Shown here piece by piece: positions 35,162 to 40,072 of a DNA stretch of 41,657 bases. The DNA is from Chiloscyllium plagiosum (taxonomy: Eukaryota). Made by a program: the position numbers and the translations under genes. Every line of letters begins with the position of its first letter. Position 1 is the first letter of the stretch. The stretch covers positions 56,447,214-56,488,870 of the forward strand of contig NC_057718.1 of assembly GCF_004010195.1 (NCBI RefSeq), read 5' to 3'. The notes beneath the pieces were generated by a model, which had not been told where the DNA came from, made no database searches, and saw only the letters and a program-made list of their open reading frames with translations.

Positions 35162-35428
35162 CTAGATTGAAGCATCATTGAAACTACTGCTTAAAGTTTC
35201 AGAAAATTGAAAGACACTTGCAGATGTTTTTGCTGGTAGAGGAACTTGGACGATACATATGGGAGATGTTCTGCCATGAGACTGAGATGAAGAAGAAATT
35301 GAGCTTTCACTAGAACTGCTCCGAGTCTCTGTACTTGTGCTACTTTTCTTCATCTTTCGTCTCTTTGCCAAAGGAGCGTTTTCAACACTTTGGAGGAAAA
35401 ATCCTTCTCTCTTGCACTTATTAACAGC
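35162..35428 (-). CDS. RPS6KA5-like: MSK-family kinase last coding exon (AVNKCKREGFFLQSVENAPLAKRRKMKKSSTSTETRSSSSESS...DASI*)
   Basis: Acceptor ttctactttag|GCT; 89 codons including TAG. Has the MAPK-docking/NLS motif LAKRRK and an MSK1-type Ser-rich tail. Confidence 0.93.
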   Translation of the reverse strand, partial: AVNKCKREGFFLQSVENAPLAKRRKMKKSSTSTETRSSSSESSISSSSQSHGRTSPICIVQVPLPAKTSASVFQFSETLSSSFNDASI

Positions 35429-36144
35429 CTAAAGTAGAAAGCAATACTCAAAATATAATATAGTCATAACAAATGTAACATTACATAAAATATTCTTGAA
35501 AGATTTCCTGACATCCTAGTTAAATGCATTGGAGAACTGTAGGATGATGGGATTAATTTAACTGTTCACAATGTGAGGTTGTCTAATTTTGATAAAGTTT
35601 TCAATGCTGACAAGGTGATACCACATATTCTTTCCAATTGCCAATTTTTCCCAAGCTACTTCCAGCTCTAAAACAGGTGTGGTGTGCACCAAGAAACATG
35701 AGAAACCAGGTATGTAAAATGCCATAAAGAATTATTTTTAGCTTGTCAATTTTCCAGCCTTCTCTTCTGAAGGTTTTCAACTTTGTGATGGGGTACAGTT
35801 CAAAAAGGTAGAAGGCAACCTCTACTATTTCATCCATGTGGCTATTATTCATGAACAAATTTCTAGCAGTTCAATTTTCTAGACTTAAATCCAGATGCCA
35901 ACAACTATCTAGTTACCAACTACTGGATGGCCTCAGCAACTTGTTGGAACATGGTCACATTTGAAATATATAAATAAGCTAGAACTTACATTGTGGGAAG
36001 GGGACATAATGTTTCAAGCTAATCCTAACATTTGAGTAGCTTTGTAAATGTGATATTTGTGTTTACTTCATGAATAATAGTGCACTATATTTGAAAAATC
36101 TTCAAAATAGTTTTGATTTTTTTGAAAAGAACACTGCTTTGGAG

Positions 36145-36342
36145 CAAAATCTGAAAGAACTGTGGATGCTAAAAATCAGAAACAAAAACCGAAATTGCTG
36201 GAAAAGTTCAGCAAATCTGGCAGCATCTGTGGAGAGTAATCAGAGTTAATATTTCAGCTGCAGTGATCCTTCCTCAGAAGAGTTCTCTTCACAGATGCTG
36301 TCAAACATGCTGAGCTTTTCCAGCAATTTCAGTTTTTCTTAC
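36145..36342. mobile_element. Short inverted-repeat element of the Penelope-terminus type with a degenerate hammerhead on -
   Basis: GAAATTGCTGGAAAAGTTCAGCA..TGGCAGCATCTGTG pairs with CACAGATGCTGTCA..TGCTGAGCTTTTCCAGCAATTTC; the spacer on - reads CTGAGGA-A...GAAA. Confidence 0.7.
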
Positions 36343-36426
36343 TGCCTTGGAATAAACTGACAAAACAATGCAGAGACATTGCTGTAATATTATCATTCCA
36401 GTTTAATTTCTGATTTAAGGTCTTAC

Positions 36427-36581
36427 CATAAAAGAAGCTTTGAAGTAACTGTTTGTGGAAGATTCAAGAATATTTGGAGACATCAATGGATTAGAGGACA
36501 AGCAATGGCTATTTTGAAACCAGTTGTTGAATCTTGAGCTAGATAACTTCAGACGAGAGTTTGGATCCACAGTAAGTAAAC
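36427..36581 (-). CDS. RPS6KA5-like: MSK-family kinase penultimate exon ([52 protein letters not shown]); not in the ORF track
   Basis: Manual translation of the reverse complement. Acceptor ttctatag|GT, donor ATG|gtaaga; 155 nt, phase 1-0. Matches MSK1 GLLTVDP..RLK...W.Q....SSNPLMTP.IL.SS. Confidence 0.9.
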
Positions 36582-36610
36582 CTATAGAATTGTGAAGTCA
36601 TATGTACTGT

Positions 36611-37287
36611 CATTCTAAAATATCCCAAATAGATACAGGTATATTAAAAAAAAAATCCCTGGTATATTTTTATGAATGTATGTGTATTATCTATATGTAC
36701 ATTTACTTGTAAATAATAAATAAGCAACATATTAGTTTACATAAATGTCTTTTGTTGCAACACTACCTGAGCAATTTATTTGCAATTTTAAAATTGAAAG
36801 GTACATTACCTTGCACCAGCTCTTTAGCTTCTTGAGAAACATTGTTCCAGACTTCTCCAGCAAGCGAGTAGTTTCCCTCTTTTGTTGTTCTTGTTTTTTC
36901 ATCAATACTCGATATCACAGTTCGCTGCATATTTTGGAAAGGAATCAGTCCAGACAACATTGTATACTAGAATGCAACAAAATACATAACCATTATAATT
37001 GGCTATTTTCAAAGCAATGGAACATAGTAAATATTTGGGTAATTAGGAATTATATGTAGTCCCATTCTAATCTTTAAAAGATTCCAAATAGATAAAGGTA
37101 CATTTAAAAAAAACTATTCCCTGGTCTACTTTTATCTACGTATGTGTATTATCTATACATATGTACACATTTGTAAATAATAAATAAGCTACATCATTTA
37201 GTTTACATAAATGTGTTTTATTGCAACACTACCTGAACTAGGTTTCTAAGTAATGGAAAATGTAGTAAATATTTGGGTAATTAGGAG
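36611..37287. repeat. Local direct duplications around a kinase exon: ~160-175 bp at 36611-36770 and 37063-37236; ~35 bp at 37016-37049 and 37252-37287
   Basis: Shared CCAAATAGATA, GTATGTGTATTATCTATA, TTGTAAATAATAAATAAGC, TTAGTTTACATAAATGT and TTGCAACACTACCTGA; the second pair shares TAGTAAATATTTGGGTAATTAGGA. Confidence 0.9.
36810..36966 (-). CDS. RPS6KA5-like: MSK-family kinase exon (YTMLSGLIPFQ...WNNVSQEAKELVQ-G)
   Basis: Acceptor cattctag|TAT, donor CAAG|gtaatg; 157 nt, phase 0-1; in frame with both neighbouring exons. Confidence 0.9.
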
Positions 37288-37499: not shown

Positions 37500-37800
37500 A
37501 ATCAACAAGTGTGGAACTGGAAAAGCACAGCCGGTCAGGCAGCATCTGAGGAGCAGGAGAGTTGACATTTCAAGCATAAGCTCTTCTTCAGGAGCGTGGG
37601 GGTGCCCAAGGGGGTTGAGAGATAAATGGGAAGGGGATGGGCTGGGGTGGTGTAGGAAGCTAGGAATGCAATAAGTGGATGAAGGTAGGGGGTGATGGTG
37701 ATATGTTGGAGTGGAGGGTGGAGTGAATAGGTGGAAAGGAAGAAGGACAGATAGGACAGTTCAAGAGGGCAGTGCCAAATTAGAGGGTTGGATCTGAGGT
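37500..37800 (-). mobile_element. Penelope-type terminal repeat fragment with hammerhead-like core (~37564-37591), sense to the kinase pre-mRNA
   Basis: On -: CTGAAGA-A-GAGC(TTAT)GCTT-GAAA-TG-TC followed by GATGCTGCCTGACC.GCTG.GCTTTTCCAG. Confidence 0.72.
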
Positions 37801-37914
37801 AGTTTCCTCATTTATTTTTCATGTAAAATTTTTTTTTAAAAAATCACTTACACCTGGTTTTTCAGCAAATGTGTAATTCAGACTACTTTGGCAGTGTATA
37901 AATTTAGATACTTT

Positions 37915-38375
37915 TAGTAGCAGCAATGTTAATGGACTGGTAATTCAGAGCGATGGACTATTAATCAAGACAAAATAGGATTTCAGATTCTATCACGGTA
38001 CTTTGAGAATTGTATTTCATTTTTTAAAAACCTGGAAATAAAAATTTGGTATCAGTTAAAGTGACATGAAATGACTTGATTGTAATAGCAACCTATTTGA
38101 TTCACTAATGCTATTTCTGGAGAAGAAAACATTAATCTTTGTCTGTATGCCATTCGAGTCTTACACCAATAAGGTTGACTCTTGACTGCATTCTCTAGAA
38201 GCCTGACAATCCATTCAATTACAATGCAACAATCACAAGAAAGAATTGGTTGCAACAATCACAAGAAAGAATTGGTTGCAATAGTCCAAGACAAAGGTTC
38301 ACTACCTTCTTCTGACAACTAGGGGCTGGGTAATGAATCCTGACCTTGTCATTTATATTCACATTTCAGGGTTAA
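37915..38375 (+). mobile_element. Old SINE-like element related to 22360-22681, with a perfect 26-bp tandem duplication at 38225-38276
   Basis: TGGACTGGTAATTCAGAG, TTCACTAATG, GGTTGACTCT and ACAACTAGGG.TGGGTAAT motifs; (TGCAACAATCACAAGAAAGAATTGGT)2. Confidence 0.6.
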
Positions 38376-38559
38376 TTTTTTTAAAAAGTATGGAATAGTC
38401 TTCCAATAAACTTCTGCAAAATTAAAAATAATGGATCAAGGTAATTTTTGTACATTGAGATATCATAATCTGGATTAGCCCCTGCACCACCCGACTCCAG
38501 TAAATGTGTGATTATCTAATTTGGTAGCAAATACAGGAAGAAAATTATCTTAATGGCAA

Positions 38560-39105
38560 TATGTTAAGAAAGTGGTGATGAGCCAGTGAATTCTCTGTCA
38601 CAGAAAATAGTTGTGGTCAAACATTAAAAGTTTTTAAGGAGGAGTTAGATACAGTTTTTAGGGTTAAAGGCATTAAAGGGTACGGGGTGAAAGAAGGAAC
38701 AGATACTGAGCAGGATGATCAGCCACGATCGTATTGAATGGCACAGCAGACTCAAAGAGCCAAATGGCCTACAATTATTTAGAACAATAGAACAATACAG
38801 CACAGAAGTGGTCCTTCGGCCCATGATGTTGTGCTGAACATTTGTCCTAGCTTAAGCACCCATCCATGTACCTATCCAATTGCCGCTTAAAGGTCACCAA
38901 TGATTCTGACTCTGCCACTCCCACAGGCAGCGCATTCCATGCCCCCATCACTCTCTGGGGAAAGAACCTACCCCTGACATCCCCCCTATACCTTCCACCC
39001 TTCACCTTAAATTTATGTCCCCTTATAACACTCTGTTGTACCCGGGGAAAAAGTTTCTGACTGTCTACTCTATCTATTCCTCTGATCATCTTATAAACCT
39101 CTATC
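38560..39105. mobile_element. Two CR1 3' fragments tail-to-tail (+ ~38560-38772; - ~38781-39105)
   Basis: On -: MIEVYKMIRGIDRV...RGHKFKVKGGRY...WNALP with a (TATTGTTC) tail. The + fragment ends CAAATGGCCTAC. Confidence 0.82.
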
Positions 39106-39880
39106 ATTTTATTATTTTATATGTATGTGTGTTAATACTTCCACCGCAATGCTCCACACTGGTTGAAGCTGCAAGCTTGTACTGTAGCAATTACATTAGG
39201 ATAAATTAATTAATCTGCTGCTCCTGGGAGGAAATTACACTCAAAAAAGAAAGTTTAAATCAGAGATACAGTGCAAACCTGCATGAATCGGTTTTGAAGA
39301 AAAAAATCTGTTCACACTGGGAACATAGATTTGATGAATTTACTCATGTACCTGCTGCAACACATTTTATTTTGAATAGTACAAGATACCACAAGTGAAA
39401 TCACAGATATAACTTGCATCTCTTTTTATTATTATTTCATTGTACCTTTCGATTTATAAATTTGGTAAAGTATGTTGCACAAGTCTTTTATAGGGCCATG
39501 CCATTAAATAAATTAGCAAATTTTCTTCCATGTAAACTTTCTGGTCACTGAAGGCACGAAGATCTTAGAGTTGGGAAATGAAAAACTTTTCCCATACTCA
39601 CTTACAGAAATAAGATTAGGATAAAGTTTGTAAACTGGCTATTTTTTATAGCCTTTCCAAGTATGACTACAATTGTGTGTTAATTTCTGATACACTATTT
39701 CATTTAAGGTGATGTGTATGGAATTCCTAAAAGCATTGCAAGATTTGGACTTTCATTTTGCTTGGACTTTTGGAACTTAAATCCTACACATGAAAGGACA
39801 ACTATTGAATATGCAGCAATATCAATTCTTCCTTCACAAATGTTTGAATGATACATAACTCAAATATTTTACATACTTAC

Positions 39881-40072
39881 TAATATTACTCCAATACTCC
39901 ACAGGTCACAAGACTCATCATAACCATTTTGCTTGAAAATTTCGGGAGCTGCATATTGCAAAGTGAAACACGGAGTTTTCAATGGCTGGCTGTCAGAAGG
40001 CTTAACTCTTGCAAACCCAAAATCTACTATTTTGATCACTGCATCATCATTCTGATCAGTAAACAAGATATT
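39881..40072 (-). CDS. RPS6KA5-like: MSK-family kinase, C-terminal kinase domain exon (NILFTD...DFGFAR...[14 protein letters not shown]...[10 protein letters not shown])
   Basis: Acceptor ataaacag|AAT, donor TTA|gtaagt; 192 nt, phase 0-0. Contains DFG, the activation-loop TP site and the APE motif typical of MSK1/2. Confidence 0.93.

Follow-up and report, generated by a model that had tools for sequence, protein, structure and literature searches.

A third MSK-family kinase gene in the CCDC88A block of the shark Chiloscyllium plagiosum, very probably distinct from MSK1 and MSK2

The MSK3 gene and its neighbours

The stretch of DNA analysed here (the window) comprises 41,657 nucleotides of the Chiloscyllium plagiosum genome (NC_057718.1, positions 56,447,214-56,488,870, on the sequence designated C9 in the 3.56 Gb genome G000). 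It contains the 3′ end of a kinase gene of the MSK family, here called MSK3, together with PRORSD1. MSK3 is very probably an intact, spliced third MSK gene that lies in the CCDC88A block and is distinct from the MSK1 (RPS6KA5) and MSK2 (RPS6KA4) genes of the same shark; it is the likely whole-genome-duplication sister of MSK2. Bony vertebrates have likely lost it, and its product is predicted to be a nuclear kinase activated by ERK or p38.

Four minus-strand exons of MSK3 with canonical AG/GT ends lie in the window, and their in-frame join of 771 nt encodes 256 amino acids followed by a TAG stop codon. Two other neighbouring donors were tried for the first of these exons, and both break the frame. 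The peptide is a 100% match to the last 256 residues of the 792-residue RefSeq protein P0121, whose name, 'ribosomal protein S6 kinase alpha-5-like', is the type of label ('RPS6KA5-like') that the initial annotation had anticipated from an automated pipeline. A tblastn search with P0001, a close relative of P0121, extended the gene to 17 coding exons spread across some 118 kb without a single stop inside an exon. The 13 remaining exons lie to the right of the window, reaching about 112 kb beyond it.

All three in-window joints occur at the predicted bases in contigs from two runs, X1 and X2, and one X2 contig of 5,240 nt holds all four exons and the 3′ untranslated region down to position 32496 (Table 1); both runs were taken as RNA by guess, no run containing this stretch being recorded as such. 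Single reads of run X17 cross two of the joints, and run X18 yielded no reads. Since the genome MSK searches revealed no intronless MSK copy, the joined contigs indicate a spliced transcript, and a retrocopy is an unlikely origin for them. The initial description of an intact, spliceable MSK-family gene converging on PRORSD1 thus agrees with the in-frame GT-AG exons, the spliced contigs and the position of PRORSD1 on the opposite strand.

Table 1. Coding exons and untranslated region of MSK3, and the convergent PRORSD1 gene, in window coordinates
Feature	Position	Strand	Content and support
MSK3 coding exon 14 of 17	39881..40072	-	DFG of the C-terminal kinase, activation loop (T569, equivalent to MSK1 T581), APE, subdomain IX; joint 36966|39881 in X1 and X2
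MSK3 coding exon 15	36810..36966	-	C-terminal kinase C-lobe with its diverged alpha-G region; spliced contigs
MSK3 coding exon 16	36427..36581	-	Subdomain XI, proline-directed S687 (T700 equivalent), start of the C-terminal helix; spliced contigs
MSK3 last exon (17), coding part	35162..35428	-	Basic MAPK-docking/nuclear-localisation motif, serine-rich tail, stop codon; spliced contigs
MSK3 3′ untranslated region, about 2.7 kb	32496..35161	-	Unbroken in the 5,240-nt X2 contig; AATAAA hexamers at 32573-32675
PRORSD1, two coding exons (5701-5784, 12954-13382)	5701..13382	+	PF04073 tRNA_edit, E 3e-22; convergent with MSK3; marker of the CCDC88A block

On C9, MSK3 (56.48-56.60 Mb, minus) follows a reticulon gene (56.09 Mb, minus), an IF-2-domain gene (56.39 Mb, minus) and PRORSD1 (plus), and precedes a CCDC88 gene (56.65 to beyond 56.78 Mb, minus), a BART-domain gene (57.09 Mb, plus; a weak match, E 4e-4) and PP4R3 (57.26-57.30 Mb, minus). 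The CCDC88 gene, whose last exon is at 56.655 Mb, is identified as CCDC88A because 17 residues encoded by one of its exons are identical to the Girdin peptide in PDB 6mhf (chain 6mhf_C). MSK3 sits in a block composed of reticulon, MTIF2, PRORSD1, MSK3, CCDC88A, CFAP36 and PPP4R3, with CCDC88A to the right of the window on the minus strand and MTIF2, as the IF-2-domain gene, to the left, where both had been predicted. The C10 sequence carries a second MSK gene in a corresponding setting: PP4R3 (4.75-4.80 Mb, plus), CCDC88 (5.05 Mb, plus), D-glutamate cyclase (5.37 Mb, minus) and MSK1 (5.54-5.68 Mb, plus), an order presumably that of human 14q32. This CCDC88 gene is taken to be CCDC88C from its neighbourhood. 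Pairs of CCDC88 and PP4R3 flank the MSK genes of C9 and C10 in equal order and on equal strands, and both chromosomes carry reticulons, as expected of paralogous blocks. A family search with HOOK_N missed the CCDC88 exons of both C9 and C10, and the genes came to light on reading the flanks; an ESM Atlas look-up of a CCDC88 coiled-coil exon gave generic coiled-coil matches only.

The gene order of the human CCDC88A block is otherwise general background. In cattle, a published gene list for this region gives RTN4, RPS27A, MTIF2, PRORSD1, CCDC88A, CFAP36 and PPP4R3B, and no MSK gene appears in the listed portion (PMC12075139). The human 11q13 region, as far as the cited segment extends, holds PRDX5, CCDC88B and RPS6KA4 together (PMC4267237).

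Several minor features were noted along the locus. Shark PRORSD1 has an open two-exon frame; the gene name is our assumption, for which the tRNA_edit domain is the expected one, and the human gene is presumably a pseudogene. The last CCDC88A exon (L070:6069-7247, minus) ends in YEYGCV, which is taken here to be a PDZ-binding end like those of Daple and the long Girdin isoform. Three X17 reads skip 3,333 bases (36571-39905, plus strand, GT..AG) and link sequence inside MSK3 exons 16 and 14, possibly representing a spliced antisense transcript. In intron 1 of MSK3 (L013-L014, C9 about 56.538-56.546 Mb), a run of plus-strand open reading frames resembles retroviral gag, reverse transcriptase and envelope, and by its motifs is presumably an endogenous retrovirus.

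Kinase domains and predicted activation

MSK3 contains two Pkinase stretches and a Pkinase_C stretch, which form the tandem architecture of an MSK: an N-terminal AGC kinase, an AGC C-terminal linker and a C-terminal CaMK-type kinase. Its best PDB matches are the MSK1 structures 1vzo (5e-176) and 3kn5 (1e-140). The catalytic Lys, Glu, HRD-Asp and DFG-Asp of both domains are invariant in all ten aligned MSK3 members, as are S199, S347, S362, S367, T569, the docking motif (L724, R727) and the tail serines. The invariant residues include the equivalents of S212, S360, S376, S381 and T581 of human MSK1, whose site numbers (T700 among them) we take to be the established ones. The third site for mitogen-activated protein kinases (MAPKs), equivalent to T700, is Ser-Pro in eight of the ten; two skates have Pro there and Thr-Pro one residue earlier. 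All ten have Cys in place of the beta-3 Ala.

Parts of a 2016 review describe MSK activation as a relay in which ERK1/2 or p38 phosphorylate three sites and turn on the C-terminal kinase, autophosphorylation follows, and the N-terminal kinase becomes active towards CREB/ATF1 and histone H3 (PMC4901046). By homology to MSK1 and MSK2, ERK or p38 would dock on the basic tail motif of MSK3 (L724-R727) and phosphorylate S347, T569 and S687. The C-terminal kinase would then phosphorylate S362 and S199, after which the N-terminal kinase would phosphorylate nuclear targets, for instance CREB/ATF1 and histone H3.

Conservation is uneven along the protein. Over residues 601-680, MSK3 orthologs are 56-71% identical, versus 93-95% for MSK1 in the same five species pairs, and in one species pair the values are 62% for MSK3 and 84% for MSK2. 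For the N-terminal kinase, MSK3 orthologs share 88-93% identity, versus 94-97% for MSK1. This faster-evolving C-lobe suggests an activation switch that may have been loosened or retuned. Kinase biochemists would then have in MSK3 a naturally occurring version of the C-terminal switch to study.

The same divergence, together with the beta-3 Cys, the altered T700 site and deletions in the alpha-G region and C-terminal helix of ray and skate MSK3, could instead be read as a true whole-genome-duplication paralog (ohnolog) whose C-terminal kinase is decaying or rewired and which has ceased to be a standard ERK/p38-gated MSK. This is unlikely when set against the invariance of the catalytic residues, of the T581-equivalent Thr-Pro, of the docking motif and of the linker serines, against the conserved N-terminal kinase, and against a frame that is open in at least 14 species of sharks, rays and chimaera. 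By analogy with its relatives, MSK3 is probably a nuclear kinase gated by MAPKs in the standard way, its C-lobe having been retuned. Structure prediction with AlphaFold from a 19-row alignment gave no usable fold (mean predicted local distance difference test score, pLDDT, 35).

Among the sequences compared, the chimaera MSK1 model P0286 has DLG in place of DFG in its C-terminal kinase, which may be an error of the model or the assembly.

Three MSK lineages and the origin of MSK3

MSK exons occur at three places in the shark genome: C9 (MSK3), C10, and the unplaced scaffolds C87466, C92308 and C98988. The C10 gene agrees with bony-vertebrate MSK1 in each of its exons, is placed in the MSK1 clade and is the true RPS6KA5; it lies beside CCDC88 and DGLUCY, where a separate CCDC88-linked RPS6KA5 had been predicted. 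The separate RPS6KA4 that had likewise been predicted is present as nine exons with MSK2-type motifs on the three scaffolds (GC 48-51%), which at 7-26 kb are too short to show neighbouring genes such as CCDC88B. These exons probably belong to one MSK2 gene, as they are non-overlapping and 87-97% identical to a single relative, P0507. The annotated C98988 protein clusters with full-length proteins of sharks and rays, which in turn fall with MSK2. For a homologous exon, GC content at third codon positions (GC3) is 0.88 on the MSK2 scaffolds versus 0.38 on C9 and 0.34 on C10. Genome searches of this assembly, two of them with a stricter first look, revealed no fourth MSK.

A tree of 46 sequences, picked from 343 proteins as one per lineage and paralog, was computed in a careful IQ-TREE run and rooted on hagfish and lamprey. 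It separates MSK1 (20 rows, 100/99), MSK2 (16 rows including shark and ray genes, 100/100) and MSK3 (8 rows from sharks, rays and chimaera, 100/100), with shark genes in all three clades and MSK3 as sister to MSK2 (97/90). In approximately unbiased (AU) tests on 18 of the 46 rows under LG+G4, the grouping of MSK3 with cartilaginous-fish MSK1 was rejected (p 0.0009), as was that with shark and ray MSK2 (p 2e-5). MSK3 thus nests in neither of the two established clades, as the initial annotation had proposed. Since the MSK1 and MSK2 clades each unite shark and bony members to the exclusion of MSK3, and given the AU tests, the duplication that produced MSK3 is placed before the split of sharks and bony fishes.

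That MSK3 is a cartilaginous-fish-specific duplicate of RPS6KA5 that moved beside CCDC88A is highly improbable. Such an origin would fit the greater overall identity of MSK3 to MSK1 (72%) than to MSK2 (67%), its RefSeq name, and the presence of cartilaginous fish only among the matches listed; it is refuted by the AU rejection of a grouping with shark and chimaera MSK1 and by synteny, MSK3 and MSK1 holding equal positions and strands beside a CCDC88 gene on paralogous blocks. In addition, shark MSK1 joins bony-vertebrate MSK1 at 100/99, and the MSK1 likeness of MSK3 is mostly common to hagfish and lamprey. Scarcely credible is the idea that MSK3 is the shark's real RPS6KA4, translocated, with no third paralog, which could appeal to the sister position of MSK2, to the motifs FM|A, LESS and EGFFL.SV common to both, and to the MSK1 and MSK2 orthologs credited to elephant shark in the 2016 review, at least in the sections available (PMC4901046), but is refuted by three MSK genes in one genome, a separate MSK2 being present here and in other sharks and rays, where it falls at 100/100 with the MSK2 of coelacanth, bichir, teleosts and tetrapods, MSK3 excluded, and where its grouping with MSK3 was rejected by the AU test given above.

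The mixture of MSK1-like and MSK2-like features in MSK3 had been described as a mosaic, and the motifs quoted for it are all present. In a column comparison of a 34-row alignment, MSK3 agrees with MSK1 against MSK2 at 16 columns, 11 of which show that residue in hagfish as well as in lamprey, and with MSK2 against MSK1 at 8 columns, 4 of them shared by both cyclostomes; at 23 columns it has a residue of its own. TLQY, for example, is found also in hagfish and lamprey, and the chimaera and sevengill members of MSK3 have TLHY. Because these residues are common to hagfish and lamprey, most of the mosaic is retained ancestral sequence, and the mix has the look of a third lineage whose siblings changed independently. 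The observation of a mosaic therefore stands, but as ancestral retention for the most part and not as a chimera; gene conversion or a chimera is not favoured as its cause by the comparison with the cyclostomes.

MSK3 and MSK1 (1vzo, 3kn5) have in common the two kinase domains, the exon boundaries, every catalytic residue, most of the regulatory ones and the basic docking tail, and each lies downstream of a CCDC88 gene that is on its own strand. MSK3 differs in having its own clade and chromosome, in its neighbours (MTIF2, PRORSD1 and CCDC88A, not DGLUCY and the C10 CCDC88), in the Ser at the T700 site, in the beta-3 Cys and in the faster C-lobe. With MSK2, its likely sister from the second genome doubling, it shares the three motifs named above and HLYQR.HF. 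Unlike MSK2, it has kept the ancestral MSK1-like tail, is low in GC3 and resides on a large chromosome, the shark MSK2 being a separate gene.

Block synteny, the three-clade tree and the AU tests together support the proposal that MSK3 is the CCDC88A-linked whole-genome-duplication paralog. At the first genome doubling, the CCDC88C-side copy (MSK1) would have separated from the CCDC88A/B-side copy, and at the second the latter would have given rise to MSK3 on the A side and MSK2 on the B side. In the portion of Lamb 2021 that covers these genes, CCDC88A is assigned to column A, CCDC88B to column B and CCDC88C to column C, and the first doubling is what parted (A,B) from (C,D) (PMC8040251). That pairing agrees with the tree order of MSK3 and MSK2.

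Several results weigh against this account. By the AU test, a grouping of MSK3 with all MSK1 is a borderline case (p 0.047), and the support for MSK3 and MSK2 as sisters is 87 with invertebrate outgroups, in a search that was unfinished and with an unsupported root. Derived columns common to MSK3 and MSK1, or to MSK3 and MSK2, are few either way, and overall identity points to MSK1, as noted above. The sister link to MSK2 is accordingly likely but moderate, not firm. The low identity of the C-lobe between MSK3 members could equally mean decay. Lastly, the absence of bony-vertebrate members of MSK3 holds for the 510 proteins listed, with bony-vertebrate loci unread.

Taxonomic range and earlier records of MSK3

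At least 32 members of the MSK3 clade occur among the 510 proteins listed, a count that leaves out low-identity invertebrate and other kinase matches; all named ones are chondrichthyan, from at least 14 species. Three motifs specific to the clade are found only in its members among these proteins. Two rodent proteins (P0309, P0310) that scored best against MSK3 are 96-99% identical to mammalian MSK1, and their scores are an artefact of inserted sequence. The retention of MSK3 in cartilaginous fish that had been put forward thus holds for sharks, rays and chimaera. Its loss from the human locus, and from bony vertebrates in general, is likely, not proven, because the absence is one among the proteins listed. 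The ancestor of jawed vertebrates likely had at least three MSKs, the third of which was kept by sharks, rays and chimaeras.

Ohnologs that survive in sharks but have disappeared from bony fish are a well-known pattern, and MSK3 is an unnamed member of a known family that arose by a known process. The skate genome study (Marletaz 2023) reported 19 ohnologs that chondrichthyans have retained and bony fishes have lost, among them wnt6b and cspg5, and MSK3 follows the same evolutionary pattern (PMC10115646). MSK is unnamed in the main text of that study and the gene list is absent from its Supplementary Table 3, so that MSK3 could be one of the 19 or not.

MSK3 is also not wholly unseen. The Fig. 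2b source data of the hagfish genome paper (Marletaz 2024), a table of more than 30,000 rows, include Chipu0006846, an ortholog of MSK3 with an automatic 'alpha2' label and the name 'nd', and the four MSK1 rows, from gar, frog, chicken and shark, all read 'alpha1' (PMC10972751). Across its family, OG_3931 (nine of nine rows), gar, frog and chicken lack an alpha2 entry (PMC10972751). The corresponding protein, P0125, is 99% identical to P0121. The alpha2 status of MSK3 is thus already on record in that source-data table, whose labels, like the columns of Lamb 2021, are in accord with the tree. No publication naming a third vertebrate MSK was found in a literature search beyond the reach of which lay most subscription journals, and the 12 of 24 whale shark genome supplement files that were searched held no match to MSK3.

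The 2016 review, in the part concerned, treats the family as MSK1 and MSK2, produced by a single duplication in early vertebrates (PMC4901046). In this analysis chimaera yielded two MSKs, which are MSK1 and MSK3, not MSK2, for which reason the 'MSK2' of elephant shark in that review may be MSK3. A bolder reading, held here to be doubtful, would make MSK3 a chondrichthyan-only third MSK with a rewired C-terminal switch (its own alpha-G, a Ser or shifted T700 site, and a shortened inhibitory helix in rays) and would equate the elephant-shark 'MSK2' of the literature with MSK3. If this were true, sharks would have a CREB/histone-H3 kinase with an ERK/p38 threshold or dependence unlike that of MSK1 and MSK2.

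The clades also correct orthology, RefSeq having given the name 'RPS6KA5-like' to both MSK3 and shark MSK2. The shark and ray MSK2 proteins P0155, P0157, P0162 and P0507 carry this annotation and coelacanth MSK2 (P0243) is called 'alpha-5', yet all belong to the RPS6KA4 clade. In skate, one gene listed as 'Rps6ka5-2' (LE12105, SI Table 5), which could be any of the MSK paralogs, shows a log2 fold change of 2.2 between regions of the pectoral fin (PMC10115646). Lamprey and hagfish have full-length MSK proteins (P0250 and P0117, respectively), in contrast to the statement, in the passage of the review that deals with lamprey, that it is without MSK (PMC4901046).

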